This document shows, piece after piece, positions 16,609 through 25,379 of a DNA stretch of 64,000 bases. The notes under the pieces were generated by a model. The model had not been told where the DNA came from. It made no database searches and was given only the letters and a program-made list of their open reading frames with translations. This DNA comes from Myxococcota bacterium. GTDB lineage: Bacteria; Myxococcota_A; UBA796. The position numbers and the translations under genes are program-made. The stretch's first letter is position 1, and each line of letters begins with the position of its first letter. The DNA is taken from positions 290 through 64,289 of the forward strand of contig JAQXDW010000045.1 of assembly GCA_029251165.1 (NCBI GenBank), in the 5' to 3' direction.

Positions 16609-18255
16609 TCAGCCTCCCAGAAGCTTCGCTGCAAGCTGTGGCTCTCCACCGATCTTGAGGAGCTGGGCGACGCGCTTTGTGAAGTCGGGATCCTTGTTGA
16701 GGTAGGCCCCGGCGCGGACCGCCTCCAGGTTGCCGCGTCGTGCCTGGGCGGCTGCGAGGACGACGATGCCGACCCCCTGCGGTCCGCCAGGCTGGCTGAG
16801 TGCGACAGTGACGGCTTCTTCCCAGGATCCGCTTCCCGCCAGCGCGATGGCGTAGTGGTCGATGATCATGCCGCGCGGCGGACAGCCCCGCTCTTCGATG
16901 GCCCACTTCGCGATCTCGGCGGCCTTTCGGGTCTGCTTGTCCTCGATGTGGGCGGATACGATGAGATCGCAGACGTCGCGGTAGGGGGGATCACCCTCGA
17001 GGGCCATGACCAGCAGCGGCAGCGCCTTGTCCAGCTCCTTGTCTCGGTGGTAGTACCAGCCGAGCCCGGCACCCGTGAAGGGGCTGGGCGAGACCCGATG
17101 GGCAGCCTCCCAGACCGTTCGGCTGTCCTGCCACTCCGGCAGCCGCAGCTGGAGCGCGATGATTCCGGGGATGGCAATGGCGGGCGCCAGCCATCGCGGC
17201 GGACGGGGAAGGACGGCCGCCATCGACAGCGCGAGACCGGCGAGGGCAAAGTAGAGGTAGCGCTCTCCGAGGAGGCCCTTGTCGAGGGTCGCGGCGAGGC
17301 TGGGGGCAAACGCGAGGCCGGCCCACAGCAGGCCGACCACCACCAGGGCATCCAGCCGGCTCTTGACCAGCGCGGCGACGACCAGCGCTCCGAACACCAG
17401 CAGCCCAGGAATGTTGGTGGCGATGTCGGGGAGGTAGCTGACGTGGCGTGCAGGACTCAGCGGCCATGGGAAAACCAGCAGGCGACCATACAGCGCGATG
17501 ATCTCCGCTGAGCGCCCGACGATGAGGGCGTAGCTGGACTCGCCGGGCATGATGCCCTCGTTGATCTCTGCGAGGCTGCGCAGTCCAAGGTAGAGGCCTG
17601 CGCTGATGATGAACGGCAGGTAGCGCTTGAGATCACCGGGGCGCTTGAAGCGGGCCAGATCGAGCACCACCAGCATGACCGGGGCGAGCACGGCGCTCTC
17701 CTTGGAGAGCAGCCCGCCGAGGAACAGCAGGCCCGCTCCGACAGCCTTTCTGGAGTCGAATTCCCGGTCGCTGACCAGCCAGATGGCGAACAGGCTCATC
17801 GCAGCGGCCATCGAGTCATTGCGCGCAGCGACCAGGGCGAGGACCTCAGCATTGACCGGGTGGAGGGCGAACAGGGTCGCGGCAGTGATCGCGGCGGCGG
17901 GGGTGACCAGCTTTCGGATCAGTCCGTGCAGCGCGACCACGACCAGGAGGTGCCACAGCAGGGAGTGAACGTGCGCGGCGGTCGCTGATAGACCGAACAG
18001 GGCGCGATCCACAGCCAGCGACAGCAGGAACATCGGCCGATAGTAGCCGCTCTTGAGGGCCTCCAGTCGCGTGGTCCCCCACAGATCCCGGGTGAAGAAT
18101 TCACCGATGTTGGCGAGAGAACCCGTGACCTGGTTGTCAAGGATCAAAGCCTCATCATCCCAGGACCAGCCCACCCCCCACAGTCGAGCGTAGGCCAGGG
18201 TTGTCACCAGCAGCAGGATCAACAGCGAGCGGTTTCGACGCAGCCAGGGGTTCAC
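16609..18255 (-). CDS. TMTC-like integral membrane glycosyltransferase (GT-C/PMT_2/DUF1736-type) with C-terminal TPR-like repeats
   Basis: About 10 predicted TM helices at the N-terminus with a WDDEALILDN motif (the FDDxxxIxxN motif of TMTC/PMT-like enzymes). The C-terminal soluble region has TPR-like helices. Confidence 0.6.
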   Translation of the reverse strand: MNPWLRRNRSLLILLLVTTLAYARLWGVGWSWDDEALILDNQVTGSLANIGEFFTRDLWGTTRLEALKSGYYRPMFLLSLAVDRALFGLSATAAHVHSLLWHLLVVVALHGLIRKLVTPAAAITAATLFALHPVNAEVLALVAARNDSMAAAMSLFAIWLVSDREFDSRKAVGAGLLFLGGLLSKESAVLAPVMLVVLDLARFKRPGDLKRYLPFIISAGLYLGLRSLAEINEGIMPGESSYALIVGRSAEIIALYGRLLVFPWPLSPARHVSYLPDIATNIPGLLVFGALVVAALVKSRLDALVVVGLLWAGLAFAPSLAATLDKGLLGERYLYFALAGLALSMAAVLPRPPRWLAPAIAIPGIIALQLRLPEWQDSRTVWEAAHRVSPSPFTGAGLGWYYHRDKELDKALPLLVMALEGDPPYRDVCDLIVSAHIEDKQTRKAAEIAKWAIEERGCPPRGMIIDHYAIALAGSGSWEEAVTVALSQPGGPQGVGIVVLAAAQARRGNLEAVRAGAYLNKDPDFTKRVAQLLKIGGEPQLAAKLLGG

Positions 18256-18300
18256 AGCAACTCCCGAGGAGCCCTATCATACGCATCGAATCAAAGGAGG

Positions 18301-18684
18301 ATGATGATGCGGACGATGGTACTGGCGCTGCTTATCGCGGGATGTGGGGACAAGGGGGACTCTGGTGTCGCTGAGCTGACCTTCGAGGAGGTCGACGCGG
18401 TCCTGGTTCAGTCCTGCGGCTTCTCTTCCTGTCATGGCGGCGCAGCGGGCGGGCTGACCCTGGATGGCGAGGACGATCATGCGGCCCTCGTCGGGGTGGC
18501 GAGCACGGCACAGACCGGTGCGACCCTGGTGGTCTCCGGAGATGCTGACGGCAGCTACCTCATCGAGAAGATGGAAGGTGGCAGCAGCATCATCGGAGAT
18601 CCGATGCCGCCTTCAGGGCTGCTGGACCAGGCCACCATCGATCAGATCCGCGACTGGATCGATCGCGGCGCGCCCAGCGACTGA
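18301..18684 (+). CDS. small PSCyt1-like (planctomycete cytochrome C domain) lipoprotein
   Basis: Lipobox LLIAGC. SCGFSSCHGGAAGGLTLDG...MPPSGLLDQATIDQIRDWIDRGAP fits the PSCyt1 pattern (C..CHG...GGL.L...MPP...L...I..WI..GA). AAAGGAGG lies just upstream of the ATGATGATG start. Confidence 0.6.
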   Translation: MMMRTMVLALLIAGCGDKGDSGVAELTFEEVDAVLVQSCGFSSCHGGAAGGLTLDGEDDHAALVGVASTAQTGATLVVSGDADGSYLIEKMEGGSSIIGDPMPPSGLLDQATIDQIRDWIDRGAPSD

Positions 18685-18687
18685 GGC

Positions 18688-19824
18688 TCAGTCCCAGGGC
18701 AGGGGAGCGAGCCACTGCTCGGCGTCGACGGAGATGCCATCGACGACCAGGCCCCAGTGCAGGTGCGGACCGGTGCTCTGCCCCGTCGAGCCGACCTGTC
18801 CGATGACCTCTCCAGCCTCGACGCGCTCACCCACCGTGAGCGCGACTGACGAGAGGTGGTTGTAGCTGGTGGAGACGCCTTGGCCGTGGTCGAGGATGAC
18901 GACGTTTCCGAAGATGTGCTGCCAGCCGGCGTGAAGCGCGATCCCCGCCGCGGCAGCCCGGACGGGGGTGCCGGTGATGTTGGCGAGGTCCGTTCCGTAG
19001 TGGTAGCTCCGTCGGCCATCGGAGTAGGTCCGATAGCGACCGAAGCCTGAGGTCCGCCGACCCTCAATGGGGCGCTGAAGCGGTCCGTCCCAGAGCGGGG
19101 CATCGGAGCGGACGGTGTAGGCATCGCGGCGCTCTTTCCGGGTGCGCGCGCGAGAAGGCTCGTCTGCACGGGCTGCGGTCTGCGTCTTGGAGAGGCGGAT
19201 GAAGCCTCCAGCGGGGAACGTGCCCGCGGCGATGTTCAGCGGGATGGTGGTCTCGGCGGTGTTTCCAGCGGCGTCTGTCGCAGACAGGGTGAGGGGAAAA
19301 TCACCTGGCTCCTGGGTGATGGCGATGCCGATCAGCGCCCGGTAGCGACCATCTTCGAGGGGGTAGAGGGGCCGCTGCCGGTCGAGGAAGGTCGCGCTTG
19401 TGGCGGCGACGGGCTCATCGCTGGTCAGCACGAGCCCCATGGTCTGCCCCTGCACGCCGCTGGTTGGAGCGAGAGCGAGGGTCGGCGCCGTGTTGTCGGT
19501 CGCCAGGGAGAGGCGGATCGCGCTGGTGTTTCCAGCGGCATCGGTCGCCTCGATGGAGAGCGCGTGGGCGCCGTCGGAGAGGGAGGCGGTGTCGATGTAC
19601 CAGGGGGTGCCAAGGAGGGACTGGGCCGGGGCATCGTCGATGCGAGTGGTGACCTGAGCACCGGGCTCAGCAAAGATCGAAACCGACACCGCTCCCCGGT
19701 GGTGAGGCTCGGACAGCGGTCGGACGGAGAGCACCGGCGGCTGCGAGTCGATGCAGGCGACGAGAAAGGCCAAAGGAATGGCCCGCTTCACAGCGAAATG
19801 ACACCCCGCAGAGCGAAGAGTCAT
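18688..19824 (-). CDS. M23 family (LytM-like) metallopeptidase lipoprotein
   Basis: HxxxD/HLH signature: ILDHGQGVSTSYNHLSS...GSTGQSTGPHLHWG. The start is taken at ATG 19824 (MTLRSAG...LAFLVAC lipobox) rather than the ORF-track 20031. Confidence 0.8.
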   Translation of the reverse strand: MTLRSAGCHFAVKRAIPLAFLVACIDSQPPVLSVRPLSEPHHRGAVSVSIFAEPGAQVTTRIDDAPAQSLLGTPWYIDTASLSDGAHALSIEATDAAGNTSAIRLSLATDNTAPTLALAPTSGVQGQTMGLVLTSDEPVAATSATFLDRQRPLYPLEDGRYRALIGIAITQEPGDFPLTLSATDAAGNTAETTIPLNIAAGTFPAGGFIRLSKTQTAARADEPSRARTRKERRDAYTVRSDAPLWDGPLQRPIEGRRTSGFGRYRTYSDGRRSYHYGTDLANITGTPVRAAAAGIALHAGWQHIFGNVVILDHGQGVSTSYNHLSSVALTVGERVEAGEVIGQVGSTGQSTGPHLHWGLVVDGISVDAEQWLAPLPWD

Positions 19825-19852
19825 ATCTTCCCTGCAACACCTGAGGCGTTCT

Positions 19853-20782
19853 ATGTCCCCCGCTCTGCTCACCATGCTGTCCTCCGCAGTCGCCAGTCCT
19901 CCACCCCCACCGATTGTAGACGGGGACACCACCGATGACTTTGCACAGGTCGGTGTGCTGGCGATGCGCTTTGGAGAGTATCGGGAGTCATTCTGCTCGG
20001 GCACGCTCATCCACCGCAGGTGGGTGCTCACCGCAGCGCACTGCCTCTCCGACCTCGATGCATATGTGCGCCACTACGGTGCTGAGATTGTGTTCATGGT
20101 CGGCAGCGACATGTCCAACGGTGACAGCATCACGGAGGAAGTCCTCGCGGTCGACTGGTTCGATCACCCCTCCTACAGCGCCCAGAGTCTCACCGGAGAC
20201 ATCGGGCTTGTCGAGCTCGATGAGGCGCTGTCGATGATGCCGATGCCGCTCAACGAGGAGCCACCCAGCGCGGACTGGAGCGACGAGCCGCTGACCTATG
20301 TAGGCTGGGGAGTGACCAGCGACAACGGCTACGACTCTGGGGTCAAGCGCTACGCTGAGATTCCGTACTACGAGCACGACGAGCAGTTCATCTACGCCTA
20401 CGACTCCGGCGGCTCCAACGTCTGCTACGGTGACTCTGGTGGGGCTGGTCTCGTCGGAAGCCCAGAGCAGGGCTACGCGATCGCTGGCGTGAACTCGTTC
20501 GTCTATCCCTCCTGCGTGGGCGGCTACTCTGGTGCCACCCGGGTCGATCAGTACATCGACTGGATCGCGGAGAGTGTTCCCCTGGAGGAGAACGTGTTCA
20601 CGGCGGATGACGTCGTCCTGGAAGACCTCCTCTCGGGTGGAGAGAGCAGCAACACCGTCCTGCCTGGAGATGGCAGCAGCAGCGACGACAAGTCCTCTGG
20701 CGGCTGCACTGTCGCACCGGTCGGTGGCTCGATGTCGCTGATCCTGCTCGGCGCACTCACGGTGTGGAGGCGTCGGGAATAA
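19853..20782 (+). CDS. trypsin-like (S1) serine protease with a C-terminal MYXO-CTERM-type sorting signal
   Basis: Signal peptide present. LTAAHC (His) and GDSGG (Ser) catalytic motifs. The C-terminus SSGGCTVAPVGGSMSLILLGALTVWRRRE has an invariant Cys, a TM helix and an RRR tail. Confidence 0.8.
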   Translation: MSPALLTMLSSAVASPPPPPIVDGDTTDDFAQVGVLAMRFGEYRESFCSGTLIHRRWVLTAAHCLSDLDAYVRHYGAEIVFMVGSDMSNGDSITEEVLAVDWFDHPSYSAQSLTGDIGLVELDEALSMMPMPLNEEPPSADWSDEPLTYVGWGVTSDNGYDSGVKRYAEIPYYEHDEQFIYAYDSGGSNVCYGDSGGAGLVGSPEQGYAIAGVNSFVYPSCVGGYSGATRVDQYIDWIAESVPLEENVFTADDVVLEDLLSGGESSNTVLPGDGSSSDDKSSGGCTVAPVGGSMSLILLGALTVWRRRE

Positions 20783-21103
20783 TCTTCCCGTCGGGGCATT
20801 GCATAGACACAACACATCAGCGGGTCTGGTCACGCGGTCACATCCTCTGGGAGAGGTCTGCGATGGGGTGCCCGATTCCAGCTCAAAAGAACTTTAGCAA
20901 TAGAGTTGACGGTTGGGTTGCCTTGAGGGCTATAGTCCTTACACATAAGAACATACGCTGGAGGCAGTCTTCAGCGCGCGAGCGGAGTTAGCCACTCCGA
21001 TTTCGCCGGATCCCGCCGTGAGGGCGGCGTCTCCCCACCATGGGTGCCGGTGGCTCTTGGTGGATAAGCAGGTCGGGACCTGTGAACATTAACGCACCGA
21101 AGA

Positions 21104-21116
21104 AAGGAGGTGATCC
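21104..21116 (+). promoter_or_regulatory. extended Shine-Dalgarno, equivalently a 16S 3'-terminus mimic on the minus strand
   Basis: AAGGAGGTGATCC. The minus strand reads CUGGAUCACCUCCUUUCU, an 18-nt identity to the canonical 16S rRNA 3' end. Confidence 0.4.
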
Positions 21117-21117
21117 A

Positions 21118-21159
21118 GTGAGTAAACCCTACGTGCATAGCCAGGTGGTGGCGAAGTAG
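21118..21159 (+). CDS. tiny 13-aa ORF (GTG start) downstream of the perfect SD; possible leader peptide
   Basis: GTG AGT AAA CCC TAC GTG CAT AGC CAG GTG GTG GCG AAG TAG, 7 nt after the GGAGG core. Confidence 0.15.
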   Translation: MSKPYVHSQVVAK

Positions 21160-21214
21160 TGGAGCACCGCGCATCGCTAAACAGATTTCGTCTGACGTGA
21201 ACTGTAAAGTGTAA

Positions 21215-21232
21215 TCCACTGGTATCAGTGGA
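21215..21232. other. perfect 7-bp stem hairpin TCCACTG-GTAT-CAGTGGA
   Basis: Read directly from the sequence. Its 3' arm overlaps one copy of the GGATATAGC motif. Confidence 0.5.
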
Positions 21233-21238
21233 TATAGC
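21228..21238 (-). promoter_or_regulatory. GCTATATCCA motif copy A
   Basis: The minus strand reads GCTATATCCACTG; see the finding on the recurrent motif. Confidence 0.3.
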
Positions 21239-21330
21239 GCAGCCCTTCTCCGGCGTAGATGTTGCGTTGCAACGACTGCGTTCCTTAGAATTGTGACACC
21301 GGGGTTCTGTTACGTTCCCGGCTACCACCG

Positions 21331-21410
21331 ACTCCCTCCAGGCACCGGGATGCACGTCCCGGGCAGGCGCAACCATTAGCCTGCATCTGCCTGGGGGGAG
21401 CTTTATTTTA
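21331..21410 (+). terminator. compound stem-loop followed by a T-rich tract (terminator-like, plus strand)
   Basis: The outer stem ACTCCCTCCAGGC / GCCTGGGGGGAGC (one G-U pair) encloses two inner hairpins, CCGGGA-tgcacg-TCCCGG and GCAGGC-gcaaccatta-GCCTGC, and is followed by TTTATTTTA. Confidence 0.35.
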
Positions 21411-21577
21411 CGGCATGACATCGCGCGTGGTGCGCGCAGTCTGAGCAGAAGTCACGGACGGAGTACGCTTGCTTCGTCGCGGATGGCCTGGCAGCAAAGA
21501 CGTGAGACCGTCCATCCATCTTGGGAGCACAGCGGAGGGGGTGTCGCTGGTGCGCTGAGCACGACCGCTGTGCTGCG

Positions 21578-22507
21578 CTATGGGAATGTCTTCCAGGCGC
21601 CATCGGTGGTGACGCTCGCCTCCAGCAGACCCAGCTCAACGAGGGCGGTCCGAGTGGCCGCCCAGCGGACGTCGGTCATCGCGCCGAGGCCGTCCTCGCC
21701 GAGAACGAACGGACGCTGTGCGTCGGTGATGCAGGCGAGCAGCTCGGGCTTGAGCTGGTCGTTGAGGCGCGCCAGCTCGGCGTTGGCCCGAGCCGGGTTG
21801 TCCAGGTATGCCTGCCAGGCGGCCCGGGTGGCTGCCACGAAGTCAGCGGTCCATGGCGGCGGCGGGTCGGAGACGGTCAGCAGCGCCGCGTACGGATTCC
21901 AGCCGACGTCGGCCGCCTTCAGGAAGCTGATGGAGGCACCCTGTCCCTCCGCGAGGCAGGGCTCAGAGGTGATGAACGCCTGCTGTCGAAAGGTCTCATC
22001 TACGAGGAAGGGGCCGATCGAGCCACCATACGGCACCGGCTCGATCTTGCCCTCCAGCCCGACCGTCTTCCACAAGAAGCTCTGGAACGGCGAGCCGATC
22101 TCGATGGCGAGCTGGCCATCGGTGAGATCCTGGAGCTGGGTGACTCCGCTGCTGCTGTGGACCATCACGCCCTGCGGGTTGATCTGGAGGCTGGGGAAGA
22201 CCCCGACCGCCTCGATGCCGCGGCTGCGCTTGACGAGCAGATCGTCTGCTGCGCTCAGGGCGGCCTCTGCCTGACCGGACGCCAGCAGCTCCAGGCTCGG
22301 CGCTCCGGGGCCGCCAGGGATGATGGTGACGTCGAAGCCGGCAGCCTCGTAGTGCCCGCCGAGCACACCCTCGTAGAAGCCACCAAACTCGGGCTCAGGG
22401 TACCAGTTCAGCGCCAGCCGGATGGGGGTGAGCGCCGGGGCGCCGGGCTGAGGGGCCGCGGCTTGTTCTGTCTGGGAGCCGCTACAGGCCAGGATCCACC
22501 ACACCAC
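21578..22507 (-). CDS. ABC transporter substrate-binding lipoprotein, NMT1/THI5-like (sulfonate/nitrate/HMP-type)
   Basis: Lipobox ILACSG. IRLALNWYPEPEFGGFYEG... is typical of NMT1/SsuA/ThiY-like binding proteins. It is the last gene of a minus-strand operon. Confidence 0.7.
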   Translation of the reverse strand: MVWWILACSGSQTEQAAAPQPGAPALTPIRLALNWYPEPEFGGFYEGVLGGHYEAAGFDVTIIPGGPGAPSLELLASGQAEAALSAADDLLVKRSRGIEAVGVFPSLQINPQGVMVHSSSGVTQLQDLTDGQLAIEIGSPFQSFLWKTVGLEGKIEPVPYGGSIGPFLVDETFRQQAFITSEPCLAEGQGASISFLKAADVGWNPYAALLTVSDPPPPWTADFVAATRAAWQAYLDNPARANAELARLNDQLKPELLACITDAQRPFVLGEDGLGAMTDVRWAATRTALVELGLLEASVTTDGAWKTFP

Positions 22508-23259
22508 TACTCACCTCCGTGCCAGCGCCCAATGCTCAGCTTCTCCAGCAGGCGTACCGCAGAGAAGAAGACCAGGGCAAGTACCGCCGCGGCGAAGATC
22601 GCCGCGAAGCTGGTGGCGGTGTCTGCGGATCGGGCCGATCGCAGCACCACAAAGCCCAGCGAGGGGGGGAAGCCGTTGGAGCCGACAAATTCACCGACGA
22701 TGGCCCCGATGACCGACAGCCCCGCCGCGGTGCGCAGCCCGGAGAACAGGAACGGCAGCGCGCTGGGAAGCCGGAGGTGGAAGAGGGTGGAGAGGAAGCC
22801 GGCCCGATACAGCGCGAACAGCTCAACCTGCTCGGTAGGCGTGGATCGAATGCCGAGGTTGGCGGCAGTGAGGACCGGGAAGAACGAGACGATGGCTGCG
22901 CTGGCGACTGCCGGAGGAAGCCCGTAGCCGAGCCAGACCACCAGCAGCGGGGCGATGGCGACGATCGGCACGGTCTGTAGCAGGAGCGCGTAGGGGTACA
23001 GCGCTGCCTCCAGCCACTTCGAGCGCGAGAACAGCATCGCTCCAAGCAGCCCGAATCCGACCGCGATGAGCATCCCGATGAGCGAGGCGACGGCGGTGGT
23101 GGCGGTGGCCTCGGCGAGGATCGGGGCACCGCTGATGCTGGCCTGGAGCACCTCATGAGGAGAGGGCAGCAGGACGGGAGGGTAGCGCGATGCCAGCGCA
23201 GCCCAGCCGGAGAGCAAGACCCCGGCGGTGAGGACCGGGAGCAGGTGCGCGAGCTTCAC
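22507..23259 (-). CDS. ABC transporter permease (binding-protein-dependent inner-membrane component, SsuC/TauC-like)
   Basis: 250 aa with about 6 hydrophobic helices. The stop overlaps the SBP start and the start overlaps the ATPase stop. Confidence 0.75.
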   Translation of the reverse strand: MKLAHLLPVLTAGVLLSGWAALASRYPPVLLPSPHEVLQASISGAPILAEATATTAVASLIGMLIAVGFGLLGAMLFSRSKWLEAALYPYALLLQTVPIVAIAPLLVVWLGYGLPPAVASAAIVSFFPVLTAANLGIRSTPTEQVELFALYRAGFLSTLFHLRLPSALPFLFSGLRTAAGLSVIGAIVGEFVGSNGFPPSLGFVVLRSARSADTATSFAAIFAAAVLALVFFSAVRLLEKLSIGRWHGGE

Positions 23260-23954
23260 AGCGCGCCCTCCAGTGCTGCAACCAGCGCGACAACCGCCGG
23301 CGCGTGACGATCTCGCGGCCGCGGCGTGGTGAGCGTGGTGTCTTCCGCGATGGTGACCGGCTGTCCGGCCAGGACCACCACCCGGTCACCCAGCAGGACC
23401 GCTTCTTCCAAGTCATGGGTGACCATGACGACGGTCGTCGAGAGGCTCTCAGTCAGGGAGAGGAATTCAGTGTGCATCTGGCGACGGGTCAGCGCATCGA
23501 GGGAGGAGAACGGCTCATCCATCAGGAGCAGCGCCGGCTGCGTCACCAGGGCGCGCGCGAGGCTGACCCGCATCCGCATTCCGCCCGACAGCGCCCGGGG
23601 CAGCGATGAGGACGCGTCAGCCAGCCCGACCCGCCCCAGCGCCTCGCGGGCCTGCTCCCGTCGGGTCGTGGCATCGAGCCCGGAGAGCTTCAGCGGCAGC
23701 GCAACATTGTCCAGCGCGCTGAGCCAGGGCAAGAGGTTGGGGGACTGGAAGACAAAGGCGCGGCTGGACAGCGGCGCGCTGACGCTCCCAGACTCGGGCG
23801 TGAGCAGGCCTGCGAGCAGGCGCAGGATGGTGGACTTGCCACACCCGCTCGCCCCCACCAGCACGGTGATGCTCCCCGGCGCGATGGACAGGGAAAAGTC
23901 CGCTGCGATGCACGGGCCATCGGGCCAGGAGAACGAGACGCTGCTGAGCTTCAT
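23256..23954 (-). CDS. ABC transporter ATP-binding protein (SsuB/TauB-like)
   Basis: Walker A GASGCGKST, ABC signature LSGGMRMRVSLARAL, Walker B LLLMDEPFSSLD. Confidence 0.85.
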   Translation of the reverse strand: MKLSSVSFSWPDGPCIAADFSLSIAPGSITVLVGASGCGKSTILRLLAGLLTPESGSVSAPLSSRAFVFQSPNLLPWLSALDNVALPLKLSGLDATTRREQAREALGRVGLADASSSLPRALSGGMRMRVSLARALVTQPALLLMDEPFSSLDALTRRQMHTEFLSLTESLSTTVVMVTHDLEEAVLLGDRVVVLAGQPVTIAEDTTLTTPRPRDRHAPAVVALVAALEGAL

Positions 23955-23972
23955 CCGTCTGCTGAGGACAGA

Positions 23973-25379
23973 CTACAGCGCATTCGTCCAGCTCATGCTG
24001 TCGGAGTCGGCGTTGCTGTGCGTGCCGTCGCGGGTGACGGAGGCGTAGGTCTTGCCGGTCGCCTCTTGCCACCGCTTCCGGGCGTTGTAGAGGGTCTTGG
24101 CACCGGACTGGATGCCGTAGACGGCATGCCGCAGGGCGCCCGGGTTCCAGACGCGCCCCTCGATGAGGTCGTCATCGGGGGAGATGAGGCCTTGCTCACG
24201 GGCAAGCTGTGCGAGCCGAGTGTGCGGGTAGATGCGGATCGGCTGCATCAGCAGGAGGGTGAACATCCGCAGCTTGCCGCCGAGCTCCCAGCGGGCGTGG
24301 GCGAGGAACTTGACGATGCTCATCAGGCTGCGGAGATCTTCTCCTGGAGAATTCAGGAAGAAGCTGTACTCGACGTCCATGTTGTGCTTCTTGGCGACCT
24401 GGACGGTGTAGAGCATGTCCTCGTAGCGGAAGTTCTTGTCGAGGTTCTTGAGCATCCGATCATCGACGTGATCGGGGGAGAACGACAGCAGCCCGCAGCC
24501 GGCACGCTTCAGCCAGATGATCAGCTCATCAGGGAGGGTCTTGCGGTGCTCGTTGAACCACGCCGACCACTGCACGTCGAGCTTGCGGCGGACGATCTCC
24601 TTGCAGATGTCGATGGCGTGGGCGACGGGGATGTTGAAGATCTGGTCGCAGAAGAAGAACTGTCGGACGCCGTACGTGTGAACCATGTCCTCGATCTCGT
24701 CCACGACGTCGTTGGCTGGACGCATGCGGACGTTGTGGCCGAGGAGGAACGTATCGGAGCAGTGGATACAGCGGAGCGCGCAGCCCCGCTTGGCCTGGAG
24801 TCCGACGCTGACGAAGGACGAGGCGAGGTAGGGCTGGTGAGGCACCAGATCGCGCCGGGGGTGGCGCAGCGACTTGAAGTCGACCTTGGAGGGCGGTCCG
24901 GTGTACTTCACCTCCTCGCCATCTCGGTAGTAGACCCCGGGAACCTTCCAGGGTGCGTTCAGGGTCTCTAAGAGCTGCGGGAGGCGCTCTTCGGCTTCTC
25001 CCCAGATGCCCATGTCGATGGCGTTGACCCGCTTCATCATCGCCTCTGCATAGAGGCTGAACGCGGTACCACCGGCGATGACCTTCACGCTGGGGCACTT
25101 CTTCTTGATGAGAAGGATGGTGTCCTGCTGGGGCTCAAAGTCGTCGGTGTACTTGTGGGGCATCCCGACCTTCATGTTGCGAAGGGAGATACCGACGACT
25201 TCAGGACTGAACCGGTCGAGGCATGCAGCGAGCGCCTCAAACGGGGCATCCCGGTGAAGGTTGAGATCGAAGATCTCGACATCGTGACCATCGAGATGGG
25301 CCGCCAGGTAGGCGAGCCCGATCGGATAGACCAGCTCCATGTCGAGTGCTGTAAAGGCCTGAACCAGAAGGACGCGCAT
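23973..25379 (-). CDS. cobalamin-binding-domain radical SAM protein (class B rSAM)
   Basis: N-terminal B12-binding-like Rossmann region (VKVIAGGTAFSLY). The CxxxCxxC cluster GCALRCIHCSD is followed by a radical-SAM core. The start is an ATG immediately preceded by a GCTATATCCAG motif. Confidence 0.8.
   Translation of the reverse strand: MRVLLVQAFTALDMELVYPIGLAYLAAHLDGHDVEIFDLNLHRDAPFEALAACLDRFSPEVVGISLRNMKVGMPHKYTDDFEPQQDTILLIKKKCPSVKVIAGGTAFSLYAEAMMKRVNAIDMGIWGEAEERLPQLLETLNAPWKVPGVYYRDGEEVKYTGPPSKVDFKSLRHPRRDLVPHQPYLASSFVSVGLQAKRGCALRCIHCSDTFLLGHNVRMRPANDVVDEIEDMVHTYGVRQFFFCDQIFNIPVAHAIDICKEIVRRKLDVQWSAWFNEHRKTLPDELIIWLKRAGCGLLSFSPDHVDDRMLKNLDKNFRYEDMLYTVQVAKKHNMDVEYSFFLNSPGEDLRSLMSIVKFLAHARWELGGKLRMFTLLLMQPIRIYPHTRLAQLAREQGLISPDDDLIEGRVWNPGALRHAVYGIQSGAKTLYNARKRWQEATGKTYASVTRDGTHSNADSDSMSWTNAL

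Follow-up and report, generated by a model that had tools for sequence, protein, structure and literature searches.

A predicted free-standing gene for a large structured RNA with an extended Shine-Dalgarno sequence in a Myxococcota bacterium

The DNA analysed here, called the window below, is a stretch of 64,000 nucleotides from a Myxococcota bacterium (GenBank assembly GCA_029251165.1, contig JAQXDW010000045.1, positions 290 to 64,289 of the forward strand), and the element in question lies in a 795-bp gap at positions 20783-21577. The gap is flanked by two convergent genes, one for a trypsin-like (trypsin-family) protease upstream (+ strand, 19853-20782) and one for an NMT1/NitT-TauT-type substrate-binding protein downstream (- strand, 21578-22507). 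A first-pass annotation, made from the letters of the sequence, described an AT-richer non-coding island between convergent genes, and this description is borne out. The GC content is 0.54-0.59 in the gap and 0.61-0.71 in the flanks, the strong third-position GC signal of both flanking genes is absent from the gap in every frame, and three open reading frames (ORFs) of 75-110 amino acids inside the gap have no Pfam match. A minus-strand protein gene in the gap was considered and dropped, since it has neither a Pfam match nor a third-position GC signal. What the gap holds is a real, conserved and structured RNA gene, a new and much larger version, in a new phylum, of the already described rre ("ribosome-regulated expression") kind, for which genes have been reported from four orders of alpha-proteobacteria only (Hahn et al., RNA Biol 2017; PMC5711450). 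The contents of the gap are probably best explained as a free-standing + strand gene for a structured small mRNA or small RNA (sRNA) of ~468 nt, with gated docking of the 30S ribosomal subunit.

The most conspicuous part of the locus is an 18-mer, AGAAAGGAGGTGATCCAG, at 21101-21118 on the + strand, whose reverse complement (CTGGATCACCTCCTTTCT) is identical to the canonical 3' end of 16S rRNA, as the first-pass annotation had pointed out. It is the sole match in the window even when up to three mismatches are allowed, and the expected number of exact 18-mer matches in 2 x 64 kb is only ~2e-6, which excludes chance. Read on the + strand, these bases form an extended Shine-Dalgarno (SD) sequence of 18 nt, the final G of which is the G of a GTG start codon. 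The hallmark of rre genes, namely at least 16 nt of perfect complementarity to the 16S 3' end that run from the canonical SD through the first base of the start codon, is present here with respect to the canonical 16S end, and the 18-mer corresponds to the "17c-region" of the alpha-proteobacterial rreB. An identical 19-mer (exactly GAAAGGAGGUGAUCCAGUG) occurs in the consensus of the Rfam family CC2171, and a scan for this 19-mer with one genome per species found at least 120 loci, nearly all of them from alpha-proteobacteria among the matches listed. The listed alpha-proteobacterial loci have a -10-like element and a CAACAAC tract before the motif and an ORF of 12-30 codons after it. The peptides encoded in the listed loci change from clade to clade (MSHCH..., MSRVILERGVGT..., MSYTKRCHLAGIAR), and those of Bradyrhizobium and Rhodobacterales are the rreB and rreR peptides of Hahn et al. 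(PMC5711450). The 18-mer is also retained in relatives that were located by synteny rather than by the motif. Because the identical 19-mer opens at least 120 loci, many of them unrelated small RNAs, the sequence comparison argues that the 18-mer is an extended SD under selection for pairing with the 16S tail and not a piece of ribosomal DNA. A literature search with the sequence of the motif was overwhelmed by AAGGAGGTGATCCAGCC, the universal reverse primer for 16S in the polymerase chain reaction.

Relatives of the locus were retrieved by their binding protein, independently of the motif. Syntenic loci contain the RNA block at binding-protein identities of 95% (L121), 83% (L123-L126), 71% (L128 and L129) and 64% (L130), and all of these contain AAAGGAGGTGATCCAGTG and a small ORF (sORF) that begins at the GTG. 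A scan of metagenomes with the pattern GGAGGTGATCCAGTG-N6-CCCTACGTG added 21 further marine loci. In total, 25 homologues from syntenic Myxococcota metagenome-assembled genomes (MAGs) and marine metagenomes are available, and compensatory changes are abundant among them. This conservation upholds the earlier picture of a discrete locus for a structured small RNA that has a tiny ORF, an idealised SD and a terminator of compound form. A comparison with related genomes, which had been suggested as a check, found the RNA block conserved in syntenic loci; across the wider set of loci its neighbours differ.

The sORF occupies 21118-21159 on the + strand and consists of the GTG, 12 further codons and a TAG stop, with the predicted peptide VSKPYVHSQVVAK. 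The GTG start had been recognised correctly, and the length, earlier put at 14 codons, is 13 codons plus the stop. This length is found in 16 of the 20 complete members, the stop being displaced in the other four. A GTG start followed by a very short, clade-conserved sORF is likewise a hallmark of rre genes, and here it is retained at flanking-protein identities of 95-64%. The sequence PYV[HL]SQVVAK is conserved in the relatives found by synteny. In codon 7 most changes affect the third base (CTT/CTC/CTA, CAT/CAC), while codons 8-9 vary at the first base and not at the third.

The predicted RNA extends well to both sides of the sORF. A promoter-like site at 20906-20936 (+ strand) consists of TTGACG (20906-20911), a 19-nt spacer and TATAGT (20931-20936), with a transcription start predicted near 20941-20945. 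Both hexamers are retained in L123 while the spacer varies, and other members have TTGAC(A/G)-N18-19-(C/T)ATAGT or TTGGnn-N17-TACnAT in the same place. Conservation runs from the promoter-like site to the U-rich tail of a terminator, and these limits lead to a predicted RNA of ~468 nt at ~20943-21410, a block that is conserved in the syntenic relatives L121, L123, L128 and L130. The assignment to the + strand follows from the U tail and from the many G-U pairs in the covarying helices. The window RNA has a minimum free energy of -195.5 kcal/mol (z = -3.5). The conserved unit, ~20906-21410, is narrower than the ~800-bp unit first proposed, and positions 20783-20905 are not conserved in the 83% relative. 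The features that would mark a free-standing gene are the conserved promoter-like site, the covarying terminator with its U tail and the convergent flanks; the predicted length is three times that of rreB. As judged from its surroundings, the predicted RNA is an independent gene because the downstream gene is convergent and the neighbours differ between loci. A terminator consensus scan missed the compound terminator because its loop exceeds 8 nt. A tmRNA-like RNA was also considered and dropped, as ARAGORN found no tRNA or tmRNA in the window and there was no Rfam tmRNA match.

The secondary structure was evaluated with two alignments, A2 for the 5' domain (24 sequences) and A3 for the 3' part (20 sequences). 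As controls, pairing partners were slid by 1-3 columns, and the A2 covariation score was compared with 500 shuffles; the structures were derived partly from the same sequences, which flatters the comparison with the slid controls somewhat, but the count of double-sided changes is independent of that. For A2, which covers hairpins P2 and P3, the inner part of P4, P5 and a pseudoknot, 89.4% of the cells are paired versus 36-47% in the slid controls, both sides have changed at 24 of the 34 pairs, and none of the 500 shuffles reached the observed covariation score. For A3, which covers the helix between the sORF and the 3' region and the terminator, 93.3% are paired versus 39-55%, with compensatory pairs at 18 of 31 positions. 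RNAalifold independently predicts the same helices, including hairpin P1 and the long-range helix.

The 5' domain begins with P1 (20957-20975; GCTGGAG-GCAGT-CTTCAGC), where compensatory changes can be followed across the window, L121 and L123 (CTGGAG/CTTCAG, CTGAAG/CTTCAG and CTGAGG/CCTCAG). P2 (20978-21006; A2 helix 1) has a conserved loop, (Y)HAGCM, the AGC of which is invariant, and 6 of its 10 pairs have changed on both sides. In P3 (21008-21034; GGATcCCGCC-GTGAG-GGCGGcGTCT; A2 helix 2) this is true for 8 of 9 pairs, with 96.8% of the cells paired. P4 (21035-21063) has a covarying inner stem (A2 helix 3) and a 9-nt loop, and the CCGGTG (CCGGUG in the RNA) at 21047-21052 in this loop is the 5' strand of the pseudoknot. 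The 3' strand is the linker CACCG (21095-21099) just upstream of the SD, which in many members also serves as the lower strand of an SD-sequestering helix. The pseudoknot (A2 helix 4) is 90.3% paired, with UA/CG swaps at two pairs and AU/GC at a third. Between P4 and the linker lies P5 (GCAGGTCGGGACCTGT, 21068-21083; A2 helix 5), which is nearly invariant and 96.5% paired; its 14-mer CAGGTCGGGACCTG is found once in the window and, among 151 loci, in family members only. All of these features, and those that follow, are on the + strand.

The 3' domain is closed by a long-range helix that uses the sORF itself. Its 5' strand, GGTGGTGGC (GGUGGUGGC; 21144-21152), comprises the last base of codon 9 and codons 10-12, and its 3' strand, GCTACCACC (GCUACCACC; 21321-21329), stands immediately before the terminator. 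This helix (A3 helix 1) is 96.7% paired, 5 of its 9 pairs have changed on both sides, one pair is split 10:9 between GC and AU, and another subgroup provides the compensatory example GGUGAUGAC/GUCAUCACC. The three-way intrinsic terminator (21332-21410) has an outer stem (21332-21343/21389-21400), two inner hairpins, T2 (21345-21362, loop UGCACG) and T3 (21363-21384), and the U-rich tail CTTTATTTTA (21401-21410). Its A3 helices 2-4 have 12, 6 and 4 pairs, of which 8, 3 and 2 have changed on both sides, and they are 83-98% paired, so the nested, compound terminator with two inner hairpins that was seen in the single sequence also covaries in relatives. A kissing interaction was considered between the ACGUGC in the sORF and the GCACGU in the loop of T2; the two are both invariant in the unbiased set, and in the set retrieved by pattern the sORF side is fixed by construction.

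The central region between the sORF and the 3' elements (21160-21298) differs in length and sequence between subgroups. In the window it contains a hairpin, ATCCACTG-GTAT-CAGTGGAT (21214-21233), which had been described as a perfect 7-bp hairpin and is indeed present, with 8 bp, and the 10-bp palindrome CGTTGCAACG (21265-21274), which was found as described. A further hairpin, CCGGGG-(loop)-CCCGG (21299-21321), comes from a single-sequence fold; CCGG.../...CCCGG arms are visible in most members, and the hairpin overlaps the long-range strand by 1-3 nt.

A second pairing partner for the SD follows the sORF. Most members have a mimic of the 16S tail, that is of the anti-SD, in the form of CGCCUCCUU, CCACCUCUUU or CAUCACCU 0-12 nt past the stop codon, and in most members the duplex of this mimic with the linker and SD has an energy of -23 to -34 kcal/mol (z = -4 to -6). 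The window's own subgroup has an insertion of ~85 nt that bears the 8-bp hairpin just described, and the mimic there is displaced to 21243-21255 and degenerate (CCCTTCTCCGGCG; CCCUUCUCCGGCG). A universal two-state "linker switch", in which the linker would choose between the pseudoknot and the lower SD-sequestering helix, was considered and downgraded to a feature of a subgroup.

The closest described system is rreB of Bradyrhizobiaceae, a small mRNA of 165 nt with 17 nt perfectly complementary to the 16S 3' end, including the GTG's initial base, and an sORF of 14 codons; rreR of Rhodobacterales has an sORF of 18 codons (PMC5711450). The rreB RNA co-sediments with 30S subunits, and the 5' extension of the SD is required for the association; the long SD and the GTG start hold translation weak, and removal of the start codon stabilises the RNA, as was seen when a stop codon took its place (PMC5711450). 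The peptide is unstructured, and the authors treat rreB and rreR as clade-conserved small-protein genes; they doubted titration of ribosomes on grounds of stoichiometry (PMC5711450). Extended-SD small RNAs were described a single time, in 2016; no follow-up work on rre genes was found in the searched literature, the citing papers there being from the same laboratory only. The window RNA resembles rreB and rreR in its extended SD (16-17 nt there), whose complementarity to the 16S 3' end is perfect and whose last base is the GTG's first, with an identical 19-mer, GAAAGGAGGTGATCCAGTG. It also shares with them a tiny sORF, which has 13 codons here and 14 or 18 in theirs, a promoter and terminator of its own (predicted here), partial sequestration of the SD in a predicted structure, and conservation within a clade in a context that is not conserved between clades. 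Unlike rreB, it belongs to Myxococcota and not to alpha-proteobacteria, is ~468 nt rather than ~165 nt long and encodes an unrelated peptide, and its motif follows a ~150-nt covarying 5' domain with a pseudoknot, whereas the motif of rreB is near the 5' end. Binding to 30S, weak translation and start-codon-dependent decay are experimental results for rreB, and the window RNA may share them by analogy.

Two Rfam families of sRNAs enter the comparison. CC2171 (RF01867) is a Caulobacter sRNA whose expression has been validated in Caulobacter and Methylorubrum. The Rfam scan proposed in the first-pass annotation gave nothing at the gathering threshold and, when run permissively, one weak match, which was to this family. 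Representative alpha-proteobacterial motif loci score 83-91 bits against CC2171, above the threshold. The identical 19-mer stands at the start of the CC2171 model, in which early sORF codons pair with a segment just before the terminator hairpin and enclose internal hairpins, a layout shared by the window RNA. Unlike the Myxococcota RNA, CC2171 has no 5' domain; the match of the window is carried by the 19-mer, and outside the motif no sequence similarity was detected. Ms_IGR-5 (RF02471) is an sRNA of Mycobacterium smegmatis and other Actinobacteria that is validated, NAD-capped and uncharacterised. Its model opens with ACACAAGGAAGGAGGUGGUCC, a near-copy of the extended SD; the family lacks a 5' domain, and a proposed helix between its sORF and 3' region was examined in one sequence and is not part of the Rfam consensus. 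The best-scoring member of the Myxococcota family, L148, reaches 21.8 bits (E = 0.66; threshold 45). A locus in a Candidatus Methylomirabilis MAG (L074, 1663-1865, - strand) scores 67.7 bits against Ms_IGR-5 and carries the exact alpha-type 19-mer. It has a 15-codon sORF ending in ...UGUGAGGUGAUUGUAACGUAG (...UGCAAGGUGAUGACACCGUAG in Myxococcota), a CCUCCUC past the stop codon, the strand GCAGUCACC, which could pair with the sORF, and a CCCCGA... terminator stem. The collinearity of these blocks with the Myxococcota core is suggestive but unproven.

Other explanations of the locus have to be weighed against the rre-like RNA gene. If the 18-mer were a relic in the decayed remnant of an rRNA operon or of a protein gene, its 18 nt of minus-strand identity with the 3' end of 16S would be accounted for, and the absence of the island from the same position in two relatives would cause no surprise. 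This reading is effectively refuted. The match is confined to 18 nt, antisense to 16S, with nothing outside it resembling 16S, in agreement with the first-pass view that this is no intact rRNA remnant. Rfam at gathering thresholds finds neither a small-subunit (SSU) rRNA nor any other family in the whole window, and a local scan of 20600-21800 finds no SSU rRNA match at E <= 10. The alternative suggestion of an rRNA-derived fragment fails on these points and on the occurrence of the same 19-mer at the 5' end of many unrelated small RNAs. A protein pseudogene, which had been named as the outcome that would overturn the RNA interpretation, is contradicted by the absence of coding periodicity and Pfam matches and by the conservation of the block, with compensatory changes, down to 64% flanking-protein identity, since decay would not produce such changes. 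A cis-acting leader, in which translation of the mini-ORF controls a downstream gene as in an attenuator or riboswitch, is very improbable. The mini-ORF, the alternative pairings and the terminator are the formal ingredients of an attenuator, and a same-strand ORF does begin soon past the terminator in L142, L143, L144 and L145. In the window and its syntenic relatives, however, the next gene is convergent, neighbours differ among loci, the sORF has no run of regulatory codons, and the terminator domain is strong and always present. The idea of a leader peptide in the attenuator sense, raised in the first-pass annotation, is thus not sustained, as the RNA ends in its own predicted terminator and, in the window and the syntenic loci, no co-oriented gene lies downstream to be regulated.

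A plain tiny protein-coding gene deserves more attention but is still unlikely. Here the 13-aa peptide would be the product, and the RNA structure would serve only for stability and a strong ribosome-binding site. The retention of start, frame and 13-codon length in 16 of 20 complete members speaks for it, as do the conserved PYV[HL]SQVVAK of the synteny-found relatives, the mostly third-base changes in codon 7 and the opinion of the rreB/rreR authors, who regard theirs as clade-conserved small-protein genes (PMC5711450). Against it, a distant RNA strand covaries with codons 10-12, the changes in codons 8-9 fall on the first base, and the stop is displaced in four of the 20 members. Alpha, beta, Phycisphaerales and Myxococcota loci have the identical 19-nt RNA motif but encode unrelated peptides, and a covarying 5' domain of ~150 nt together with a pseudoknot is hard to explain for a product of 13 amino acids. 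Moreover, translation of rreB is weak by design and its peptide is unstructured (PMC5711450).

The rre-like RNA gene remains the preferred reading, and a number of observations weigh against it. The transcript, its start site and its ends are predictions from sequence. A sigma-70 consensus scan did not call the promoter-like site, whose atypical 19-nt spacer exceeds the 18 nt that the scan allows. Complementarity was scored against the canonical bacterial 16S 3' tail rather than that of the organism itself; the fetched loci contained no 16S 3' end, and no Myxococcota 16S 3' end sequence was found in the searched literature. The RNA block is absent from the 87% relative (L122, where the gap is 14 bp) and from the 76% relative (L127, where unrelated DNA takes its place). 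In the metagenome set, the invariance of the SD, the GTG and CCCTACGTG arises by construction of the retrieval pattern. The proposed gating is also uneven, with weak SD sequestration in the window's own subgroup (z = -0.5 to -2). In a swap test, the linker clearly prefers its cognate partner after the sORF in only about half of 20 members, and it is for this reason that the linker switch is treated as a subgroup feature. On the side of relationships, the window scores 19.4 bits against CC2171 (E = 0.13; 21095-21233, + strand), below the gathering threshold of 75, and no match to Ms_IGR-5 was found in 20600-21800 at E <= 10. With nhmmer, a profile built from the sequence that follows the GTG found nothing in the alpha, beta and Methylomirabilis loci (E < 5 for alpha and beta). 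With this profile negative and scores below the CC2171 and Ms_IGR-5 thresholds, kinship with rre RNAs is one of hallmark and architecture and not of demonstrated homology. For rreB itself, no function was found, and overexpression had no growth phenotype (PMC5711450).

A working model can be assembled from the rreB experiments and the anatomy of the window RNA. By analogy with rreB, the extended SD would give the RNA an unusually high affinity for the 16S 3' tail of 30S subunits and dock it there, translation of the sORF would be held low by the over-long SD and GTG start, and engagement of the ribosome at the start codon would affect the fate or stability of the RNA. The anatomy suggests in addition that access to the docking site may be gated by competing pairings, in which the SD is bound by the anti-SD mimic and the linker by the P4 loop, and that a ribosome translating the sORF would have to unzip the 3' domain's closing long-range helix. 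Since that helix would have to open, it is proposed that ribosome occupancy is coupled to the conformation or turnover of the RNA. The physiological output could be a 30S-associated regulator, a peptide, or both.

The rre hallmark itself is already published, and what is new is the architecture, the spread across phyla and the link between two orphan Rfam families. The covariation reveals the mini-ORF as part of a long-range helix and places the SD-adjacent linker in a pseudoknot, while CC2171 and Ms_IGR-5, both "validated but uncharacterised", become joined by a shared design. The homologues provide a broad comparative basis for asking what extended-SD RNAs do at the ribosome, and the SD extension, the anti-SD mimic, the pseudoknot and the sORF-to-3' helix are elements that can be mutated. 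A far bolder generalization, which at present seems quite improbable, is that extended-SD RNAs are widespread ribosome-directed riboregulators in alpha- and beta-proteobacteria, Myxococcota, Phycisphaerales, Methylomirabilis and, through Ms_IGR-5, probably Actinobacteria. On this hypothesis the pseudoknotted 5' domain of the Myxococcota RNA would be a sensor that gates the exposure of a 30S docking site of ultra-high affinity, the RNA would act in trans on the 30S pool, and the mini-ORF would serve for release or turnover. If so, the sensor would bind a ligand, a protein or a physical cue, and the RNA would capture, mark or park 30S particles. The 6S RNA is a global regulator that sequesters RNA polymerase by substrate mimicry of the open promoter, and the RNA considered here could be its counterpart for the ribosome. 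The likeness is an analogy only, between stable structured RNAs that offer a core machine an idealised ligand, which for the 30S subunit is a perfect mRNA initiation site; the two RNAs have no relation in sequence or structure, and ribosome titration is unproven.

According to the scan, extended-SD RNAs are not confined to alpha-proteobacteria, because units of ~130-175 nt with motif, sORF and terminator are found in Burkholderiales/Nitrosomonadales (L021, L027, L098 and L119) and in Phycisphaerales (L019 and L087). The beta-proteobacterial loci also have a conserved -10-like element ahead of the motif. A MAG labelled Hydrogenophaga (L084) and one labelled Parcubacteria (L091) carry alpha-type rre sORFs (MSHCHH... 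and MSHCLSPQ...), which may reflect horizontal transfer or binning contamination. In Streptomyces sp. NBC_00019 (L049), the 19-mer precedes a Cys-rich ORF of 51 codons (...CCWSSILDGCQFFSLTISSCHSCTNTGS), which may encode a peptide precursor with a very strong ribosome-binding site.

The region 16609-25379 around the window RNA is conserved in L122-L130, with the RNA island present in some of these loci and not in others. Its genes encode a B12-binding radical S-adenosylmethionine enzyme, a NitT/TauT-type ABC transporter (ATPase, permease and binding protein), the protease, an M23 peptidase and a PMT_2 glycosyltransferase. Two findings mark the organism as an uncultured member of Myxococcota. 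The binding protein has its closest homologues in MAGs labelled Myxococcota, and the C-terminus of the trypsin-like protease weakly resembles that of a myxosortase-dependent protein. Within 21411-21577, between the terminator of the RNA and the stop codon of the binding-protein gene, ~130 nt are present in the window and missing from the 95%-identical relative L121. The same interval contains a 9-bp inverted repeat, GCACAGCGG (21527-21535) and CCGCTGTGC (21565-21573). In one marine subgroup only (L135, L136, L146, L147 and L150), the RNA is divergent from a gene of ~210 amino acids (MK.TADMS..EL...) and a gene of ~370 amino acids (…DIVARG..G.G.SE.EALAI…).

Related motifs also occur in viral sequence. 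Units of the alpha rreB type and the CC2171 type lie inside contigs classed as viral or proviral (L152, L153, L158, L170, L174 and L178), which could mean either that prophage calls took in host DNA or that phages carry such units. In viral contigs L155, L161-L163, L171 and L175, and in L154, L164 and L180, AAGGAGGTGATCCAGTG stands ahead of recurrent small basic phage ORFs, one kind of 43 amino acids starting VPGKHYGRGSGYMNGSS... and others of 35-38 amino acids starting VSKIGKTSYPYTVKR... or VPKVGKTSYPYTVKG.... For small proteins, phages may use a GTG start preceded by an extended SD.

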